Below are positions 3,727 to 25,895 of a DNA stretch of 64,000 bases, one piece after another. The stretch is from a virus: positions 64,001-128,000 of the IMG/VR virus record IMGVR_UViG_3300014911_000001. One strand, written 5' to 3'. The notes below the pieces were generated by a model, which did not search any database, was not told where the DNA came from, and worked only from the letters and a program-made list of their open reading frames with translations. Every line of letters starts with the position of its first letter. Within the stretch, counting starts at the first letter, position 1. Made by a program: the position numbers and the translations under genes.

Positions 3727-4095
3727 CTACACAAGTGACGGGCCGAGGGCATCCTCTATTTTGGGACGCCCATACTCAACCTTCCACCCATTTTTAGGCG
3801 GAAGGTTGCGGACCCACCAGTCATACCACTGGCGGTCCATCACCTTTATAAGTTTGGATCGCTTGAAAAACACAGCGATCCACTTCCTTCTTCCCCCAGA
3901 ACGAGGGGAGAAAAACCATATAATCTCATTGGGTCGCACCTTGCCTGTTTTAACAAGATGCGACCACTGCGACCCAGTATTCACATTCTGGGCCGCTAAA
4001 ATAAACTCGTAATGGTTGCGCCACCTTTCGATGGCGCTCTCCCCGGATAACAACTTGGGGAGGTTGATTCTCAAGAAGTTAGTTAATGATAACAT
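3727..4095 (-). CDS. hypothetical basic, Trp-rich protein
   Basis: Start re-called to MLSLTN after GAGGAGGTG SD. Confidence 0.7.
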   Translation of the reverse strand: MLSLTNFLRINLPKLLSGESAIERWRNHYEFILAAQNVNTGSQWSHLVKTGKVRPNEIIWFFSPRSGGRRKWIAVFFKRSKLIKVMDRQWYDWWVRNLPPKNGWKVEYGRPKIEDALGPSLV

Positions 4096-4119
4096 AATAC
4101 ACCTCCTCTTTTGGAGGTT

Positions 4120-4177
4120 GCCTGCCACTTTTACCCACAGATAAGGCGAGGCCGGCAGGCTTAACCCCGCCTTATCT
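4120..4177 (-). ncRNA. H-type pseudoknot upstream of RBS
   Basis: S1 AGAUAAGGCGGGGU/GCCUCGCCUUAUCU, loop UAAGCCUGCCG, S2 GCCUGCC/GGCAGGC. Confidence 0.75.
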
Positions 4178-4285
4178 TACTACTCCAGCTCATTGACTCC
4201 ATCACGAGCCAACAAGCCGGCCAAACCCTCCGTCACCCTCGCGGCACCGCTCCTCGCAGGCCGCACACAGGGGAGGAGGGCTTGG

Positions 4286-4353
4286 GGAGGCCTCTTAGAC
4301 CCTCTGTCGAGGGAGCTCCAGCGCCACGCCAAGGCGGGCCTCCAGTGCTGGAG
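4286..4353 (-). ncRNA. HDV-like ribozyme fold, copy D
   Basis: P1 CUCCAGC/GCUGGAG, P2 GGAGGCC/GGCCUCC, P3 GCC/GGC, L3 UUGGCGU, P4 CCCUC/GAGGG, J4/2 UCUAAG. Confidence 0.8.
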
Positions 4354-4403
4354 TAGCCCCCGGCACGGGGGCTTCATTCTTTTTTCTCTCCACCTCCTTT
4401 CTA

Positions 4404-4440
4404 GCGGGATGAGCTAGCCCGGCCACCTAGCCCATCCCGC
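4404..4440 (-). ncRNA. 14-bp hairpin 3' of the RNAP gene; loop complementary to a 5'-UTR bulge
   Basis: GCGGGAUGGGCUAG/CUAGCUCAUCCCGC with loop GUGGCCGGG. Confidence 0.7.
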
Positions 4441-4457
4441 GGTTTAAGGTTTAACCT

Positions 4458-6857
4458 TTAATCGAGCTTCCAGAAGTTGAGCCAAAATTCGCGATCGGCA
4501 TTAGCAAGAGGATGAAGACCAGCAGGAGTTGTAATCCTAAGAAGCCGCGCGATTTCCCAGTTTCGCTTCCGACCAGTATGAAGTTCCACAAGAAATCTCA
4601 CATGAGATTCAAGTTCAGATTCGGTACCAGCAACAATTGCAAGGAAGTCGTTCTCAGCAACGGTAAGAGATTTCCAAGTGGTAAGAATTGCCTGAGGTTC
4701 AAACGCAGCAAGAAGTTTACGGAATCGCCGGTTGAGTCTCCGGAAGTTCCTAGTAAGAAGTATACGTAGCTCAGCAATCCTGCTGTTGAGGAAGCGCCTA
4801 CGCCGATCCAGTTCCCGTCTCCTATTTTTGAGGGTAGCCAGAGCATCGGATAGGGTATTAAGCCTAGGTAGCAGCCACTTTTCCATTTTCTGCCTCAGAA
4901 CTTCGTTTCTGATCCCAGATACTAGGAACCTGACTTTAGTTTCAGGTTTCGCATTAGCGAAGAGTCTCCGGCTCCGATTAACTACCGTATCAACCGCCGT
5001 CACTTTCTCCGCAAGAGCATTCACTTCATTTTCTATCTTCCGTATCCGAGAGAGCATCCGTCCAAACATGCGCCTCCTTATGCGATCCCACTTGAGGAAC
5101 AATGCCTTAACTTCTGGATCAATGGTGCCATCAGGAATAAGATCCTTAAGAGACCTAACTTCTGGCTCAGCAAACTTAACTTCAGGAATAAATTCAGCAA
5201 GAGGACCTGTCGGAGTTATGGCTGCTGGATCAGCTTTCGCGGTTCGGTTAGTGATCATTTGAGTAATAGTATCAAGCCTGGCAGTCGTACTCGCGAGTAG
5301 ATGCAGTCCCGCTTCTACCTCATGACGAAGCTCCGGTTCTTTACCATTAGCAAGATTCACCGCAGCTTGGAATAGCGCTCCAGCTTTCGCAATAAGATCC
5401 ACATTAATCTCAGTATCAGAAAGAAGCATCCTAGTGAAGCCAGCATCTGCCCGTGCGATCATCTCCTTCCCTAGCTCAATATTTTCCACTTCAGTACTAG
5501 GATCCATTCTCCACTTCCCGAAAGAGATTTCTTTTATCTTGCTTCGTATGCTATCGAAGAATTCCTTAGCAACAAGAGGCTCCTTGAAGACCTTGGATGC
5601 CGCGGCGAGAGCCACTTTGTCGCCATCGGCATCCCATCCGCTAGGCATATCTGCAGGGTGTACCAGAATCGCATGCGCACGATGGTCAACAATAATAGGA
5701 AGGATAAGAGTATCACCAGGCAAGATGGGCGACTTCTGTATGAGTAGGAGTTCTCCATCTTTCAGACCAAGCATACGTGCAATCACAGGAGGAATAACAG
5801 CAGTGCCGGGATGTGCATTCTGAAATCCCAGATAGAAGCCCGGGCCTAGTCTCAACTTCCGAAGTGCGATCTTTAAGTGGTCCAGAAGCACTCTCCGCAG
5901 GAAGCCTGCCTCCTTTATGAGGCCGAATTTCCGCAGAATATCAGCAGTCAGAGTCAGCACTGCACTAGGTTCATTGATCGGATCAGCGTTTTTAACAAGG
6001 ATATCAGCCGCTACCTCAGGATCAGAAAAACCATTAATAGCTTCAGCAATCTGCTCCTGAATCCGTTCAACAAACTCAGGCGCTGGATTAACATTCCATC
6101 CGAGTTTCCTTGGCAGAAGGAACCAGCGCGGCAGAGCTTGGCTGAGACTGATGCCACCCGCGAATACGGCACCAACCTCATGCAGCATGATGGTTCGCCC
6201 GAGTTCGAGTACGAAGCGCCGCCTCTTGATGAGTTTTGCGGTGTCAGCATCAGCGACGATATCAGTCCCTGTCTCTATCTCAGTAAGAACTTTATCAGCA
6301 AGAACCTCATCTCCCAGATACAACATCAGCCTCTGGAACCCGACTCTGCCGGGAAGAACTGGTACCGCTATCCCTTTCAGTCCAATAGCTGTAATCTTAA
6401 AACCACGTTTAATAAGAGCACGAGTTACCGCAGGGATATCAGCTTCTGTAGGAGCATGAGCACGCGCAACCAGCTCTGTAAACCTCTCGGACACGAAGAA
6501 AATTCCGTCTACACCCATTTTAGCATCGAGCTTGAGGCCGCGAACATCCACATTAGCCACTCGCTCAGGTTTAAAGTGCCAGCCCTTATTTGGGATCTCC
6601 GGAGTTGTCATCATCTGAATTCGCTTACCAGGAAGAGTTCTCAGATCAAATCCGTGATCGCCGAGGATATCTGCAATCACCTTATTAACCTTATCAATAG
6701 CAGAAGCAGGAACTACTCTAAAGACCCGACAATCAGGAACCATGGTTGGTTTCATTGGAAGATCAGAGTTCAGATCAGGATCAAATGCGAAGAAGACACT
6801 AGCACCAGCTTCAGCGAATAGAATAGCAAGAGGAGACTTCGGTATTCTTTCCATCAT
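4458..6857 (-). CDS. single-chain double-psi-beta-barrel RNA polymerase (YonO/cRdRP-like), ~799 aa
   Basis: Ordered motifs GVDGIFFVS (DG), GLKG (KG), IQKSP ([RK]xP) and catalytic GWDADGDK (DxDGD); start re-called to 6857 after AAAGGAGGTG. Confidence 0.75.
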   Translation of the reverse strand: MMERIPKSPLAILFAEAGASVFFAFDPDLNSDLPMKPTMVPDCRVFRVVPASAIDKVNKVIADILGDHGFDLRTLPGKRIQMMTTPEIPNKGWHFKPERVANVDVRGLKLDAKMGVDGIFFVSERFTELVARAHAPTEADIPAVTRALIKRGFKITAIGLKGIAVPVLPGRVGFQRLMLYLGDEVLADKVLTEIETGTDIVADADTAKLIKRRRFVLELGRTIMLHEVGAVFAGGISLSQALPRWFLLPRKLGWNVNPAPEFVERIQEQIAEAINGFSDPEVAADILVKNADPINEPSAVLTLTADILRKFGLIKEAGFLRRVLLDHLKIALRKLRLGPGFYLGFQNAHPGTAVIPPVIARMLGLKDGELLLIQKSPILPGDTLILPIIVDHRAHAILVHPADMPSGWDADGDKVALAAASKVFKEPLVAKEFFDSIRSKIKEISFGKWRMDPSTEVENIELGKEMIARADAGFTRMLLSDTEINVDLIAKAGALFQAAVNLANGKEPELRHEVEAGLHLLASTTARLDTITQMITNRTAKADPAAITPTGPLAEFIPEVKFAEPEVRSLKDLIPDGTIDPEVKALFLKWDRIRRRMFGRMLSRIRKIENEVNALAEKVTAVDTVVNRSRRLFANAKPETKVRFLVSGIRNEVLRQKMEKWLLPRLNTLSDALATLKNRRRELDRRRRFLNSRIAELRILLTRNFRRLNRRFRKLLAAFEPQAILTTWKSLTVAENDFLAIVAGTESELESHVRFLVELHTGRKRNWEIARLLRITTPAGLHPLANADREFWLNFWKLD

Positions 6858-8956: not shown

Positions 8957-9190
8957 TTATAACTCTGATGGACGGGGCCTCTGTAACGATTCAAAATATA
9001 GCGATAAAGCCTCCATGAATGTCACAGGAATCCCTTTTTTCTTATACTGGAATGGAGGCGCCGGAACATTACCCAGCACCTCCTTTGTTATTTTTATTGC
9101 AATGTAACCTCTAAGTTCCTTAAACCGGTATGTCTTGATTTCACCATTATTATAAATGGTGATAGCATTCACGTTTTTTGACATCCTCAT
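8957..9190 (-). CDS. hypothetical protein, first gene of the leftward operon
   Basis: AAGGAGG SD, 77 aa. Confidence 0.7.
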   Translation of the reverse strand: MRMSKNVNAITIYNNGEIKTYRFKELRGYIAIKITKEVLGNVPAPPFQYKKKGIPVTFMEALSLYFESLQRPRPSEL

Positions 9191-9206
9191 TTTATCCTCC
9201 TTTTTC

Positions 9207-9266
9207 GCCGCGCCTTGGTTCTACGCCCAGCATGTACGCGGCGCGGCATTTACGCACATGCTGGGC
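9207..9266 (-). ncRNA. H-type pseudoknot abutting the SD
   Basis: S1 GCCCAGCAUGUGCG/CGUACAUGCUGGGC, loop UAAAUGCCGCGCCG, S2 GCCGCGCC/GGCGCGGC; covaries with 8761-8820. Confidence 0.8.
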
Positions 9267-9544
9267 TGGCGCCCCCGCAATCCCCTATTAGCCGAGGAAG
9301 CAAATCAAAAATCAAGGGGGCAGGGGGGTCGAAATACAATCCGACCCCCTCAAAATCCACAATAGAGACCTCCTGAATTTTTTGCCGATTTCTTGACCCT
9401 TATGGACCTCCCTGTAGACTCATTCCGACGGGGTACCTTGCGGCATAGGGAGGTGTTCTATGAGGTTGTTGGTTGGACTGGATATGGGCTTGTGATGGTT
9501 ATTGTGTTAGGGTCTGGGGGGTGTGGGACCTCTTGTGGGCTTGT

Positions 9545-9720
9545 TTGTGACTATGTGGGTTGGTGTGGGCTACCCCTTTTCGACCCTATGGGTCTGCTCT
9601 CTATAAGGCTTCCTGCTTCAGCGAGGGATAGCTAGGCTTATGTGAAGCCCCCGCCAGAGCCCTCTCCACAGGCATAAGTTCGGGCCGCCCCGGCCCTACC
9701 ACCCGTGAGGTGGGTGAGCC
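9545..9720 (-). ncRNA. TnpB omega-RNA (reRNA) scaffold plus putative guide
   Basis: GGGGCGGCCCGAAC..GCCUGUGGAGA..UCGCUGAAGCAGGAAGC..GGGGUAGCCCAC matches the IS200/IS605 right-end RNA pattern; the guide would start at 9564 (ACCAACCCACAUAGUCACAA). Confidence 0.8.
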
Positions 9721-9759
9721 CATTTTTTGTGATGTATGTTGTGTGTATGTTAGCATTTT

Positions 9760-10203
9760 TTATATACCTGTGCTACCGAATCCATTTTGGTTGCGTGTTG
9801 TGGGTGTTACATCATTGACAGGTTCGAATTCGCATGGATGTATTCGTGATATTATTATTTGGGCTATTCTATCGCCGTCTTTTATGGTAATGTTTTTGTT
9901 ACCGAGGTTGATGAGGATGACCATTATTTCGCCTCTGTAGTCGCTATCTATGGTTCCTGGTGAGTTAAGGACCGTTAGTCCGTGTCTGAGTGCTAGTCCA
10001 CTTCTTGGGCGGATTTGTGCTTCGTAGTTGTTGGGTAGTTCTAGTATGAAGCCGGCCGGTATGGCTTTATATTCACCCGGGTGTAGTGTTATGGGTTTTT
10101 GGAGTCTTGCGAAGATGTCGTAGCCTGCTGAACCCGGGGTCATTTTTCTTGGCATTGTACCGCCGGGCAGAAGTTTTAGTTTGATTTTATTAGTGTTACT
10201 CAT
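9760..10203 (-). CDS. dut: dUTPase (trimeric)
   Basis: SAGYDI, RPRSGLA, GTIDSDYRGE, GDRIAQ, RNQNGFGSTG; exact start uncertain. Confidence 0.95.
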   Translation of the reverse strand: MSNTNKIKLKLLPGGTMPRKMTPGSAGYDIFARLQKPITLHPGEYKAIPAGFILELPNNYEAQIRPRSGLALRHGLTVLNSPGTIDSDYRGEIMVILINLGNKNITIKDGDRIAQIIISRIHPCEFEPVNDVTPTTRNQNGFGSTGI

Positions 10204-10432
10204 GGCTACTGGATTTAATTTGTTCGTTCTTACTGTTACTAATAGGTTTGATACCCAGTACCCATTGGGCACCGCATTCACATATTAGTGTCATCCTTTT
10301 ATACCCTTGCGTATCGGATGCTGTGAATACGATGGACACAGATTGACCGTCTTTTAGGTTCCATCCTTCTATTATGTTTGTTTTACCGCATACGGGGCAT
10401 GTGAAGAAGCCCGCCCATTTTTGTTCCTTCAT
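10196..10432 (-). CDS. small zinc-ribbon protein
   Basis: CPVCG...CECG; ATGA overlap with the upstream gene. Confidence 0.65.
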   Translation of the reverse strand: MKEQKWAGFFTCPVCGKTNIIEGWNLKDGQSVSIVFTASDTQGYKRMTLICECGAQWVLGIKPISNSKNEQIKSSSHE

Positions 10433-10824
10433 TTTATCTCCTTATTGTTTTTATCGTTGAAATATGTTTTTCTAAATTCCTCTAGGATAGGTTCATCACC
10501 TGTACCATAGAGGACGGCGTGCATCCATTCAGTTACTTGATCTGCTGTATGGTGTGGAAATACATCCTTCATGCATCCGAAGTATTTTTGCCAGTTGGTT
10601 GGTTTAGGTTTTTTATGTTCTTTTATAGTCCATTTTTTGGTAGCTGTGGCGGATCCGTAGGTTGTGAGGATGAGGCCTATAATTATTATTATTATGGTGT
10701 ATGTAGTGGGATTATTGGTGTAGTGGTGGAGGAGGAAGCCGGCCGCAGTGGTAAGGAGGCCCCAGAATCGTTTGCTTTTCCAGAAGGGTTTGGTGTTATT
10801 ATTGTTATTATCGTGTGTGCTCAT
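10429..10824 (-). CDS. membrane protein, holin-like N-terminus
   Basis: KPFWKSKRFW followed by two TM segments. Confidence 0.55.
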   Translation of the reverse strand: MSTHDNNNNNTKPFWKSKRFWGLLTTAAGFLLHHYTNNPTTYTIIIIIIGLILTTYGSATATKKWTIKEHKKPKPTNWQKYFGCMKDVFPHHTADQVTEWMHAVLYGTGDEPILEEFRKTYFNDKNNKEIK

Positions 10825-12052
10825 TTTGGATCTCCTTTATGTTATGAAGCCCGCGCTTCAGTATATTAATACTTGCATTATAATCTCTATCGAGGGTTGC
10901 ACCACAGAACGGACATTTATGTATACGATCGTGGAGTGATTTGGGTACCTTATGTCCACATGAGGAGCATGTCTGCGTAGTATATGCTGGGTTAACCTTG
11001 ATGACCTGTGAGCCGTGAAGCCGCGCCTTGTAGGATGTTAGATTGATAAGTGTGTTCCATCCTGCATCGTAGATGTATTTAGAGAGGTGAAGCCGGCGGC
11101 GCTTGCTTACAAGATCACGTATTTTTATATCCTCGAATATAATAATATCATAGTTAGTAGCAAGCTGGTGTGAGATATGATGGAGGAAGCCGCGCCGCAT
11201 GTTAGCTAATCGTTCATGGAGTCTGGCTAGTTTACGCCTCTGTTTCATATAATTAGCACTCCCTCGCTGCTTGCGCGAGAGCTGTTTTTGTACACGCTTT
11301 ATACGTTTTTCGAGTTTGGTGATGAAGCGCGGGTTAGATACAATATTACCATCACTTGATACGATGAGATTCGTAAGCCCGAGATCTATACCGATGATGC
11401 GCTGCTTATTATTAGTATCGATAACGATAGTAGCGTCATTATTATTGGGTACTTCAACTGTTACATATACATACCATCTACCGCTGGGATGTCTTTTTAT
11501 AGTAACATTTTTGGCTTTAGTCCAGTCGATGGGTCGGTGAAGGCGGATTTTTAAGCCGCCGAGTTTGGGTAAATGAATATATGCGAACTTATCATTCAGT
11601 TTCTCAAATTTAATGACAGGATACCCATCCGGATAGTTTTTATGAGTCATCCAAACTTGTGGATATGTAAGTGATAGATATTGATCAGGTTTTTTGGGTT
11701 TAGGCGGACTTATATGTCCTTCTTTATTCCTGATGGCTACAAAGAAACGCTTATATGCCCAGTCAATCTTATCAATTATAGCCTTTAAGACACCTGAATA
11801 AACGAGCCTTAAGGCAGGTTCCTCTCTTTTAAATGCGGTTAGGTTACGTTGCCTCTCAAATTTTGTAGGGGTTCTATGTTCTTCATCCCATATACGTCTG
11901 TATTCATTTATTTCGTAATTATAGAACCAGCAGAGGATGGACAGCCAGTTTTCTAGTTTGTATTCTTGTAGTGTTGTTGGATAGGCTCTGAATTTGTAGG
12001 TGAGGTAGGAAGCCGCCGCCTTATCAGTATTTTTTGATCCCTGTTTATTCAT
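10808..12052 (-). CDS. tnpB: IS200/IS605-family TnpB RNA-guided endonuclease (no TnpA nearby)
   Basis: YKFRAYPT, RuvC-I GIDLG, RuvC-II FEDI, TTQTCSSCG/CPFCG zinc finger, RuvC-III DRDYNASINIL. Confidence 0.95.
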   Translation of the reverse strand: MNKQGSKNTDKAAASYLTYKFRAYPTTLQEYKLENWLSILCWFYNYEINEYRRIWDEEHRTPTKFERQRNLTAFKREEPALRLVYSGVLKAIIDKIDWAYKRFFVAIRNKEGHISPPKPKKPDQYLSLTYPQVWMTHKNYPDGYPVIKFEKLNDKFAYIHLPKLGGLKIRLHRPIDWTKAKNVTIKRHPSGRWYVYVTVEVPNNNDATIVIDTNNKQRIIGIDLGLTNLIVSSDGNIVSNPRFITKLEKRIKRVQKQLSRKQRGSANYMKQRRKLARLHERLANMRRGFLHHISHQLATNYDIIIFEDIKIRDLVSKRRRLHLSKYIYDAGWNTLINLTSYKARLHGSQVIKVNPAYTTQTCSSCGHKVPKSLHDRIHKCPFCGATLDRDYNASINILKRGLHNIKEIQNEHTR

Positions 12053-23519: not shown

Positions 23520-25895
23520 TCAATCACACTTCCCACCATACCCACACTTTGGACATGGGTTATTACAATCAAACGCATATTCAACACCTCTAGTTATAAT
23601 TTTATAACCACACATGGGGCATACATTTATTATAGCATCATCGGGTACCTCACCATCTGGTAGAGCACCATTATACATATTTGACGCTTCCTGCACAGCC
23701 TTCTTGCGTTGCTCATATTCCTCCTCAGGTGTAATACCACGCAGGAAATATTTTAGTGCTAATCCCCAGAATCCCACAGGAGATGCAATCTTGTGTCCTT
23801 TATACCATGTCATACCATCAGCAGATTTTATGCTTGCAAACTCATTAATAATACGATCAACGACACGATGATATAATTCTTCATCTCCAAGGGCATAAAT
23901 CTGCTTAAGGAATATCGATGTGATCACATCTAGAGCAATAATAAAATCCGAATGTGGTATATCCTTACTACCCAAGAAGATTTCCAGTGGTTTACCCTCA
24001 ACACCCGCTACGATAAGATAATAGTTTTGGTCCCTATAAGGGAACTTATAAGCCTTTGCATCAAGTGTATCAGGCCTCTTCCAATCAGATAAAAAGAGGA
24101 ACTTGCTCTTCTTCTTACCACTCCTTATTACAGCCTGCCGGCTTCCTTCTCTGAACACAGTTATACCCTTTACCCCATTTTTCCAAGCATCAATAAAGAA
24201 GCGCGACAGATCATCCGTTGTCCATTGAGCTGGTATCGTATATGTATTGCTAATAGCATTATCGATATGTTTCTGTATTGCCGCATGGATGGCTAATTTA
24301 TCATAAGGATCAACATCATGCGCTGTAACCATATATGGTGCATTCACATCATAACCATCAGTATTTTCTACCCATTCATATATAGGTTGCTTAAATTTCA
24401 TCATCTTATTGAAGCTCTCGCTCCACCGTTCGATCTCAAAATAAAAAATTGGCTCAAATGCTGCATTAACCCCTGTCAATAATGATATCGACCCCGTCGG
24501 CGGCACAGTTAACAACGCAACATTCCTTATACCATGTTCAGCTACCTGCATCATAAAGTCCTTATTAAAATGCTTTTTGATAAATAGCGCCTGCTCAACA
24601 TAATCCTCGTATGAACCATCCTTTTTAAACTGTTCAACAGCAGGCGCAGGGCCTAACTGCTGGGCGAGCTTAACAGATTCATCATATGCTATATTACATA
24701 TAAATTCAGCTATGCGCTCGGCTTCCCTAACAGACTTAAGGGTACCATATTTAATGCGCTTAATAATAAAATAATCAGCCAGTCCCATAAACCCTATACC
24801 AACCCGCCTCTCAAATTGAGCCTGCTCCTTTACCTTATCTATAGGATAATATGCCCTGTCAATAATAGCATCACCTAATCTAACGGCAAATCGCACCGTT
24901 TGTTCCAACTTTTTCCAATCCATACGGCGGGTAGACAGATCCACATGAGCAACAAGATTGACGCTTAAGAGGTTACAAACGGAATAAGCCGGCAGCATCT
25001 GTTCCCCACACGGATTGCTTGTAGCAATCTTTGCATAGCCTGATGAATTTGATGTGCGTTCGACATTGTCTATAAAAATAAGCCCCGGCTCCGCTGACTC
25101 CCATGCAGTCCTTACAATCGTATCCCATAACTTCTTCGCCCTTATACTACGCTGGACCTTCACAACATCATTTTTGAATGATAGAGTGAAGTCATCATCA
25201 GAAATCATAGCATCCATAAACTCATCTGTTACCTTAACAGATATGTTAGCATAGCGTACCTGAAGCCGGCTTAATATATACCTCACAAAATCGGCCTCCT
25301 CATCATCAACATTCAGAAGAGTAAAATAACTCTCCATCGCATTGTTTAAATCACACTTCATTTTTACGAATCGCTCGATATCAGGATGTGTTATGTCAAG
25401 ACTTATCAACAGAGCTCCACGACGCCCGCTCTGACCAACCAATCCCGTAACAGCAGAATATAACTCAGCCCAGCTCCATGCACCCGTAGAGACCTTCGCA
25501 GATCCTGTATGAACCTTTGCACCCTCAGGACGTAGCGTTGATATATCTATACCACATCCACCACCTGATTTATAAACGATTGCCAATTCCTTCGCCGTAT
25601 CAAAAATGCCCTCCATGCTATCCTCTGGTGATGCTATGACATAACAGTTAAATGGCGTTATACGTTGTTCAACACTCCTTCCAGCCGCATACAAAACACG
25701 ACCGCCAGGAACAAGCCGCCAGCTTAAGTTACCATCATCATCAAAAAAGATGTTATCTGTCTCTATAGGATATGGTTTAAGGAAATAATCATATACACGC
25801 TGAAAGATTGACTCGATTGGTTCATCAGGTTCTGCCTGATATTTTTTGGCTATCGTATCTCTTATGGTCTTATACTCATCAGATATTGGAATCAT
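23520..25895 (-). CDS. nrdJ: class II (B12-dependent) ribonucleotide reductase with C-terminal zinc ribbon
   Basis: PGGRVL, FNCYV, GGGCG, RRGA, AEPG, NPCGEQ, PTGSIS, KGITVFR; no nrdB in the window. Confidence 0.9.
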   Translation of the reverse strand: MIPISDEYKTIRDTIAKKYQAEPDEPIESIFQRVYDYFLKPYPIETDNIFFDDDGNLSWRLVPGGRVLYAAGRSVEQRITPFNCYVIASPEDSMEGIFDTAKELAIVYKSGGGCGIDISTLRPEGAKVHTGSAKVSTGAWSWAELYSAVTGLVGQSGRRGALLISLDITHPDIERFVKMKCDLNNAMESYFTLLNVDDEEADFVRYILSRLQVRYANISVKVTDEFMDAMISDDDFTLSFKNDVVKVQRSIRAKKLWDTIVRTAWESAEPGLIFIDNVERTSNSSGYAKIATSNPCGEQMLPAYSVCNLLSVNLVAHVDLSTRRMDWKKLEQTVRFAVRLGDAIIDRAYYPIDKVKEQAQFERRVGIGFMGLADYFIIKRIKYGTLKSVREAERIAEFICNIAYDESVKLAQQLGPAPAVEQFKKDGSYEDYVEQALFIKKHFNKDFMMQVAEHGIRNVALLTVPPTGSISLLTGVNAAFEPIFYFEIERWSESFNKMMKFKQPIYEWVENTDGYDVNAPYMVTAHDVDPYDKLAIHAAIQKHIDNAISNTYTIPAQWTTDDLSRFFIDAWKNGVKGITVFREGSRQAVIRSGKKKSKFLFLSDWKRPDTLDAKAYKFPYRDQNYYLIVAGVEGKPLEIFLGSKDIPHSDFIIALDVITSIFLKQIYALGDEELYHRVVDRIINEFASIKSADGMTWYKGHKIASPVGFWGLALKYFLRGITPEEEYEQRKKAVQEASNMYNGALPDGEVPDDAIINVCPMCGYKIITRGVEYAFDCNNPCPKCGYGGKCD

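Follow-up and report, generated by a model that had tools for sequence, protein, structure and literature searches.

TnpB is the ancestor of Cas12, and to our knowledge the known exits from transposon life in this family are the CRISPR effectors and the nuclease-dead repressors. In insertion sequences (IS) of the IS200/IS605 type (ISDra2 and its relatives in Aquificota, such as L014, which carries TnpA and TnpB), the omega-RNA starts inside the 3' end of tnpB and runs to the right end of the element, and the guide is taken from the DNA after the scaffold end. Here we analyse a 64,000-nucleotide (nt) stretch of viral DNA, hereafter the window (bases 64001-128000 of IMG/VR record IMGVR_UViG_3300014911_000001, a virus record of 175,796 bp rated complete), in which a tnpB gene (10808..12052; all window features named below lie on the minus strand unless stated otherwise) is separated from an omega-RNA scaffold core (9610..9721) by three genes. 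The locus resembles IS200/IS605 in TnpB family, domain order, RuvC triad, a homologous scaffold core (79-86% nucleotide identity) and a guide that, as predicted here, is again drawn from the DNA beyond the scaffold. It differs in that 0.86-1.09 kb of unrelated genes lie between tnpB and the RNA, that TnpA, the left end and the cellular-type right-end hairpin are gone from the window, that the terminal motif is AGCCCAC in the phage and GGTTCAC in cellular IS605, and that the unit is fixed in a phage lineage whereas IS605 is multicopy. Omega-RNA adjacency, Y1 TnpA and end hairpins were all tested and none was found, and the locus is not an IS element. The best explanation, which we hold to be probable rather than secure, is that it descends from an IS200/IS605 element of the Aquificota type and has been immobilised, that phage cargo has split tnpB from its omega-RNA, and that the nuclease is under selection, likely for homing or competition between phages.

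Other described derivatives of TnpB share some of these features. TldRs are also phage-borne, immobilised TnpB derivatives kept with a guide RNA; their RuvC site is inactivated, their guide RNA lies within 500 bp and their guides are conserved against host promoters (bioRxiv 10.1101/2023.11.30.569447), whereas in the phage TnpB RuvC is intact, the RNA is displaced past three genes and the guide is hypervariable. Because its RuvC triad is intact, the phage TnpB is not a TldR. In TranC and early type V CRISPR-Cas systems, a TnpB-derived nuclease works with a separate guide RNA gene (Jin et al., Cell 2025, as cited in PMC13565253). As far as that citing account goes, TranC resembles the phage locus in that the guide RNA gene has come apart from the nuclease open reading frame (ORF) and short repeats derived from the scaffold 3' end flank variable pieces; in the phage, however, the repeats are 13-19 nt long and present in 2-3 copies, the pieces are like diverged duplicates rather than acquired spacers, and no separate tracrRNA or crRNA is evident. 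A search for Cas1 (PF01867) found no match in the genome, and since Cas1 is absent and the repeats fall short in both number and length, we consider that this is probably not a CRISPR system. Finally, the TnpB guide RNA of IS607 (reRNA) consists of a 5' flank, a RAGATH-18 centre and a 3' flank, followed by the guide (PMC11061315). Its three-part organisation is similar, and helices 3-5 of the window scaffold give a sub-threshold RAGATH-18 match, but IS607 uses another transposase class, and its reRNA begins 13 nt past tnpB, with a 3' flank of 64 nt (PMC11061315). We found no description in the open-access literature of a TnpB with its omega-RNA beyond intervening genes.

DNA near-identical or related to the locus is present in many hydrothermal-vent and sediment metagenomes, and we compared seven haplotypes from independent samples (the window; L004; L149/L158; L142/143/145/153; L146/L154; L003; L005-7). 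The window tnpB, a single-copy gene in its genome, encodes a 414-aa protein with HTH_OrfB_IS605 (PF12323), OrfB_IS605 (PF01385) and Cas12f1-like_TNB (PF07282) Pfam domains in that order, and its residues 19-402 align to the ISDra2 TnpB structures 8h1j/8bf8 (E 2e-40). All three RuvC acidic residues are in place, as first noted from the letters alone: D223, E307 and D388 do not vary among the eight phage alleles or in an alignment of 22 sequences (the window protein and 21 relatives), in which the four zinc-finger cysteines (CxxC..CxxC) are invariant too. By its intact catalytic residues the protein would be nuclease-competent, with cleavage itself putative. Pairwise ratios of non-synonymous to synonymous substitution (dN/dS) among the eight phage alleles are 0.06-0.20 in every pair and 0.09 at the deepest split (dS ~0.7), and the TnpB protein is under purifying selection. 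Its nearest cellular proteins (48-55% identity) belong to Aquificota (Hydrogenivirga, Aquifex, Hydrogenothermaceae and Desulfurobacterium metagenome-assembled genomes). These relatives are 420-467 aa long and have an extra C-terminal tail (..THLTGGRVGATRTYACGEG..SYPSLKQES..) that is the translation of the omega-RNA; the phage protein, whose C-terminus reads ..NILKRGL-HNIKEIQNEHTR, is without it. The phage gene has also taken up a motif of its carrier. A GC-run followed by TT[CA] occurs genome-wide in 629 copies (3.6 per kb), nine of them on the tnpB coding strand in several reading frames (RRGF, KARLH, RRRLH, KRGLH, AAASY), while four cellular tnpB homologues contain 0 copies; one further copy lies in the phage-specific hairpin of the scaffold. 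This uptake of the phage's own motif argues for long residence of tnpB in the phage.

The cellular relatives define the ancestral architecture. In the consensus of 17 aligned cellular copies, a helix that closes the structure (5' UGAAC / 3' GUUCA) is accompanied by five core helices and by three stems on the 3' side. The final stem (CUCCKYCCGUAAGGRMGGAG) corresponds to the left-end hairpin and is presumably where TnpA binds. Cellular copies diverge directly after ..GGTTCAC, and we therefore placed the right end and the start of the guide there. The left ends start after a conserved TTTAAC, probably the target-adjacent motif (TAM) of the cellular family. A tnpA of the IS200 type overlaps the start of tnpB in five relatives (L011, L014, L015, L016, L024), with Y1 TnpA directly upstream of tnpB in L014 (Pfam Y1_Tnp, 5e-45); the other relatives are solo tnpB elements that begin after the same TTTAAC. 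Some 50 nt past the right end of the complete IS605 copy in L014, the scaffold is matched a second time, weakly (39 bits, E 6e-7; L014:3858-3947), and this may be a tandem or remnant element. Word depth over the window scaffold core (9645-9743) reached 720x and 65x in two sequencing runs (X5 and X6), compared with 3-7x for the rest of the locus, and the samples with the phage are therefore also rich in cellular IS copies of this omega-RNA family.

A covariance model built from 13 cellular Aquificota IS605 cores only, with phage copies excluded (R1; 117 positions, 35 pairs), matches 9610-9721(-) over its full length (model positions 1-117 of 117; 114.6 bits, E ~1e-24), and this is its sole match in the window and in the whole 176-kb genome. 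The scaffold starts 1,086 nt from the tnpB stop, in agreement with the ~1.1 kb given in the initial annotation. By blastn, window 9607-9728(-) shares 79-86% identity with the final ~190 nt of cellular tnpB ORFs (E 1e-31; for example L008 5179-5305, inside ORF 4001-5371); in these Aquificota relatives the homologous RNA does overlap the tnpB 3' end, as the initial annotation had stated for IS200/IS605 in general. The five-helix structure is supported by covariation among 24 distinct cellular and phage scaffold sequences: 98% of cells are paired and 13 pairs are changed on both sides, values as high were obtained in 0 of 500 shuffles, and the signal was lost when pairing partners were slid. Compensatory changes include two in the phage lineage itself, UA to CG in helix 2 and CG to UA in L005. 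The single-sequence fold is no better than that of shuffles (z = -1.0), and the structural support thus comes from the alignment-based tests. A tRNA scan and an Rfam search at gathering threshold gave no matches; below threshold, helices 3-5 (9610-9672(-)) resemble RAGATH-18 (RF03064) over the full model length (29.3 bits, E 0.005; gathering score 44.9). Across the deepest split of the phage alleles, the scaffold core remains 92.8% identical (up to 99% among haplotypes), ~9x more conserved than synonymous sites, and its RNA helices are under purifying selection. A relic frame of the ancestral TnpB tail (9601..9756, ..SYPSLKQEAL, compare the cellular ..SYPSLKQES..) still runs through the scaffold, and because a 1-nt indel shifts it in sister phage L003 we conclude that it is not coding. 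The scaffold 5' leader AACATAC..AAAAAA resembles the cellular NILKK codons, a resemblance that we considered as a duplication scar; L003 and L005 are without this leader. Scans for additional phage-type scaffolds returned only the two known sister contigs in the viral collection, and in the metagenomes an 18-mer hit 49 loci, all chance matches apart from those same two contigs.

The means of transposition have been lost. Y1 TnpA (PF01797) has no match anywhere in the 176-kb genome, cellular-type left- or right-end hairpins (..TTCCGTAAGGGAGG.. type) have only a chance-level match in the window, and no alignment to cellular left ends is obtained with the 48 nt that precede the phage tnpB. The initial annotation, which had reported no tnpA, no visible left-end hairpin and a remodelled right-end palindrome, thus holds on each of these points: the cellular right-end stems are replaced by a phage module ending in AGCCCAC, although some sister haplotypes retain a remnant of the hairpin. 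These data support the conclusion that tnpB is immobilised. The comparison of synteny in related phages that had been suggested bears out the split layout, with the order tnpB, cargo, scaffold in all seven haplotypes despite four different cargo sets (orf131-orf78-dut; orf133-dut; orf131-orf76-orf50 without dUTPase; a fused orf-dut). This supports a split layout that is old and conserved across diverged phage lineages. The proposal of a domesticated, phage-retained TnpB with a displaced omega-RNA is therefore upheld by immobilisation, by purifying selection on both parts, by a layout common to the four cargo sets and by the phage motif within tnpB, while the accompanying suggestion of cargo capture inside the element stands as a description of the anatomy and fails in that the locus is no longer an element.

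The same evidence bears on the rival that fares best, namely that an ordinary IS605 insertion lost TnpA, was rearranged and is now decaying, with tnpB and scaffold both on their way out. The missing TnpA and left end and the remodelled, variable right-end module would fit such a relic, as would Rhodothermus phage RM378 (NC_004735.1), which carries a truly decayed copy of the same family and indicates that the family invades thermophile phages and decays there. In RM378, an unannotated intergenic region (~25,624-25,708; L243:2974-3058) matches R1 over its full length (78.8 bits, E 1e-17), with a compact cellular-type 3' end (hairpin + ..UAGUUCAC) and a promoter-like TTGACA-N16-TACAAT site ~150 nt upstream; upstream of the scaffold there is apparently only an N-terminal scrap of tnpB, and the sole TnpB-like ORF of RM378 (29% identity) lies 19 kb away. 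RM378 shows what a decayed copy looks like in a phage, and it differs from the window. Decay is also difficult to reconcile with the low dN/dS of all eight alleles, invariant catalytic residues, a scaffold that outlasts synonymous sites through compensatory changes, a layout common to four cargo sets and to lineages as far apart as dS 0.7, and a tnpB that carries the phage's own GC-run+TT[CA] motif. We consider a relic unlikely. A recent plain IS insertion broken by rearrangement, the scenario named at the outset as the one that would overturn the proposal, is ruled out by dN/dS, the compensatory changes, the shared split layout and the phage motif.

In the window, a phage-specific 3' module (9565..9609), consisting of a linker, the hairpin GACCC-AUA-GGGUC, an A-rich/GGG tract and the terminal AGCCCAC (9571-9565), stands in for ~95 nt of cellular stems, including the right-end hairpin presumed to bind TnpA. 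A second AGCCCAC (9535..9541) follows 30 nt after the first, the window's trace of a short tandem repeat; the genome has five copies of this motif in 176 kb on both strands, two of them at this locus. The module overlaps a hypervariable segment (9404..9604) of which each haplotype has its own version (195 nt in the window, ~650 nt in L004) and whose flanks are 97-99% identical: blastn alignments between haplotypes end past ..GAAGCC (9604), in four vent metagenomes the contigs are interrupted at 9604 and 9403, and 9447-9545 is covered by none of them. Hypervariability is confined to the guide position. Within this otherwise unalignable sequence, all seven haplotypes have an A-rich tract, GGG and AGCCCAC within 20-50 nt, and MAFFT places the AGCCCAC region against the cellular ..GGAGAGGTTCAC. 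In the phage set, RNAalifold pairs AGCCC with GGGCU at the scaffold 5' edge (9721-9717) and the preceding RCCC with GGGY. An opposite-strand ORF across the guide (9393-9635, +) was rejected, its frame being broken in L003 and absent in L005.

Sister phages carry 2-3 tandem copies of a 13-19-nt repeat (for example AAGGGCAGCCCAC and AAAGGCAGCCCAC) at a spacing of 23-31 nt, adjoining an A/T-rich tract, and L149 equals L004 plus one exact extra 29-nt unit. The unit common to L004, L142 and L149 ends in ..CCCCGCGGTGAAAGGCGG-CCCAC; because it resembles the cellular right-end hairpin and terminus (L010: ..CTCTGCCCGTAAAGGCGGAGAGGTTCAC) and is followed by the same flank (AGTTTCCCCTATCAG..) in four haplotypes, it is probably the ancestral right end. 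The window has lost this unit and its flank, and its AGCCCAC (9571-9565) now precedes ACCAACCCACATAGTCACAA. Pieces between repeats resemble diverged duplicates rather than foreign spacers: units of L149 and L003 are ~70% alike by eye, and part of one piece recurs in the next. It is conceivable, if doubtful, that these tandem copies of the terminal module (..AAAGGC AGCCCAC), which vary in number and content between near-identical phages, form a working proto-array. Each AGCCCAC would then pair with the scaffold 5' GGGCU, so that one TnpB and one displaced scaffold could use alternative guides. Two further observations concern this region. In L149 a 226-aa gene without a Pfam family (L149:4260-4940) is inserted right after the repeat units, and therefore the hypervariable zone is also a gene-insertion hotspot. 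Beyond the zone, window 9196-9409(-) is a conserved structured leader before a 77-aa gene (8957-9190), with a hairpin (GGGGGTCG..CGACCCCC) and a long stem (CCCAGCATGTGCG / CGTACATGCTGGG) that shows a compensatory change in L005, to CCTGGCACGTACG / CGTACGTGCCGGG.

The putative 20-nt guide, ACCAACCCACAUAGUCACAA (9564-9545), follows directly after the first AGCCCAC. Its start aligns with the cellular right-end terminus ..GGTTCAC, beyond which cellular copies diverge, and the position proposed in the initial annotation is therefore retained, with the second AGCCCAC as an alternative end. The guide was searched against cellular and viral sequences, as recommended. Sister phages L003 and L004 contain an exact 20/20 match ~190 nt beyond the end of their own scaffold, where the 5' context is GAATGTTCC and not AGCCCAC; the L142 type has 2 mismatches at this site, and in the viral collection the guide matches two sister contigs only. 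No match with <=2 mismatches was found in 178 Aquificota genomes (one per species), nor any match in genome G001, and in the phage's own genome neither the window guide nor three sister-phage guides have another site with up to 2 mismatches over 16 nt or up to 3 over 20 nt. That a sister-phage locus is the only target found favours homing or competition over use against the host.

Between tnpB and the scaffold, the three cargo genes are closely packed. Cargo gene 1, orf131 (10429..10824), has two hydrophobic segments by eye and is present in all phage haplotypes; cargo gene 2, orf78 (10196..10432), encodes a Cys-rich putative zinc-ribbon protein and is absent from L142-type and L005-type phages; cargo gene 3 (9760..10203) is a dUTPase (Pfam dUTPase 1.2e-32; phrog_135 5e-51), replaced in L003 by a 50-aa ORF. 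Among the labels given earlier, dUTPase is thus confirmed by Pfam and PHROG, although an exact look-up of the window's dUTPase sequence returned no record, and zinc-ribbon is plausible from a weak CapR match and two Cys pairs, orf78 having no Pfam or PHROG family and no usable Atlas lead. The holin-like label finds no Pfam or PHROG family for orf131, and its Atlas score of 0.85 is under that tool's own lead threshold. As had been seen, the end of tnpB overlaps the next gene, by 17 nt from the tnpB stop to the orf131 ATG, and the following overlaps are 4 nt (orf131/orf78) and 8 nt (orf78/dUTPase); the scaffold begins 38 nt past the dUTPase stop. No terminator-like site is predicted between the genes and the scaffold, and a promoter scan gave no consensus promoter just upstream of the scaffold, with counts not above shuffles. 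We explain this arrangement best by selection that keeps tnpB, orf131, (orf78), dUTPase or orf50 and the omega-RNA together as one operon, as part of the overall account that we regard as probable.

On this account, the operon transcript would carry the scaffold at its 3' end, TnpB would bind and trim it, and the ~16-20 nt after AGCCCAC would guide double-strand DNA cleavage beside a TAM. The guide would equal the DNA flanking the scaffold, and relatives with that flank in another 5' context, such as L003 and L004, would be natural targets; the phage's own copy would be shielded because AGCCCAC occupies the TAM position. The nuclease is thus probably used to cut co-infecting related phages. 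If the cut relative were repaired with the carrier genome as template, the cassette and the genes beside it would spread by TnpA-independent homing, or the rival might simply be crippled (marker exclusion). Spread of IS605 by TnpB independently of TnpA has been reported for plasmids (PMC11870625, as cited in PMC13565253). The proposed logic is analogous to that of the T-even Seg/Mob homing endonucleases, in which the locus of a co-infecting relative is cut and the carrier allele is copied with its neighbours (PMC13565253). In the accounts given in these sources, DNA recognition by Seg/Mob enzymes is a property of the protein itself, and the drive in plasmids involved an IS that was complete (PMC13565253; PMC11870625). 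In the open-access literature that we searched there is no demonstrated RNA-guided homing between phages by a split, immobile TnpB.

It should be noted that several points weigh against this account. The cellular TAM-like TTTAAC is not 5' of the sister-phage match, and since the sole phage guide-target pair has GAATGTTCC in its place, we propose no TAM. The match itself is not independent evidence of targeting, because shared ancestry of the flank gives such a match automatically. Searches for empty-site relatives with the dUTPase and the upstream 150-aa protein gave none, their matches being members of this clade or dUTPase phages unrelated to it. The helix UGAAC/GUUCA that closes the cellular RNA is lost, and its proposed replacement, GGGCU/AGCCC, is imperfect in L005 and absent in the shortened form of L142; the fast evolution of the 3' module could mean relaxed constraint. 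Candidate working scaffold ends may be either AGCCCAC (9571-9565 or 9541-9535), or GAAGCCUUA, and sequence alone does not choose between the two AGCCCAC copies as the true 3' boundary.

Two further alternatives keep the conserved RNA and give it another role, and we judge each of them improbable, somewhat more so than a decaying relic. In the first, the ribonucleoprotein would bind a phage or host site and control transcription or replication without cutting, in the manner of TldR or Cas12m. Phage-encoded TnpB derivatives with adjacent guides are known as regulators (bioRxiv 10.1101/2023.11.30.569447), and the guide here sits in a non-coding, structured regulatory zone of the phage; however, TldRs are defined by an inactivated RuvC and often by truncated C-termini, while D/E/D and the zinc finger are invariant here, and regulatory guides are conserved, while the window guide is hypervariable and has no second close match in its own genome or in the Aquificota set. 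In the second, the scaffold would have been exapted as a cis-acting RNA of the operon (a 3' stabiliser, or a processing or termination signal) independent of guiding, with the AGCCCAC repeats as protein-binding iterons. Conserved hairpins in the neighbourhood and repeats 23-31 nt apart beside an A/T-rich tract are in keeping with this role, but conservation falls precisely on the TnpB-binding core that cellular omega-RNAs also have, each genome has a single tnpB and a single scaffold, which always occur together, and the repeat shares homology with the terminus of the cellular right end and begins at the position where guides begin in cellular copies. Least likely of all is a weapon against the host or its defences, with a guide for the host chromosome or a host mobile element: the closest TnpB relatives make Aquificota the likely host phylum and cellular scaffold copies reach 720x in one phage-containing run, yet the guide has no match with up to 2 mismatches in the 178 Aquificota genomes, although the phage's actual host may lie outside them.

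If true, this locus would represent a third exit of TnpB from transposon life, in which a nuclease-competent TnpB is fixed in a virus and its guide-RNA gene is uncoupled from the ORF. It suggests that the overlap of ORF and omega-RNA is not obligatory, that the TnpA-binding part of the RNA can be shed and that the guide-proximal end can duplicate and diversify in nature, which are the steps assumed in models of the origin of type V CRISPR. Should the tandem terminal modules prove to be a proto-array, they would constitute a naturally occurring halfway stage, in a phage, from an omega-RNA with one guide to a tracrRNA/crRNA array, formed by duplication of the right-end terminus without Cas1. A protein that works with an RNA of ~160 nt and comes from a hydrothermal setting may also be a candidate for a compact thermostable editor, for which the natural variants mark dispensable parts of the RNA. 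A nuclease that acts between co-infecting phages, should this be its role, would be the RNA-programmed equivalent of the phage homing endonucleases.

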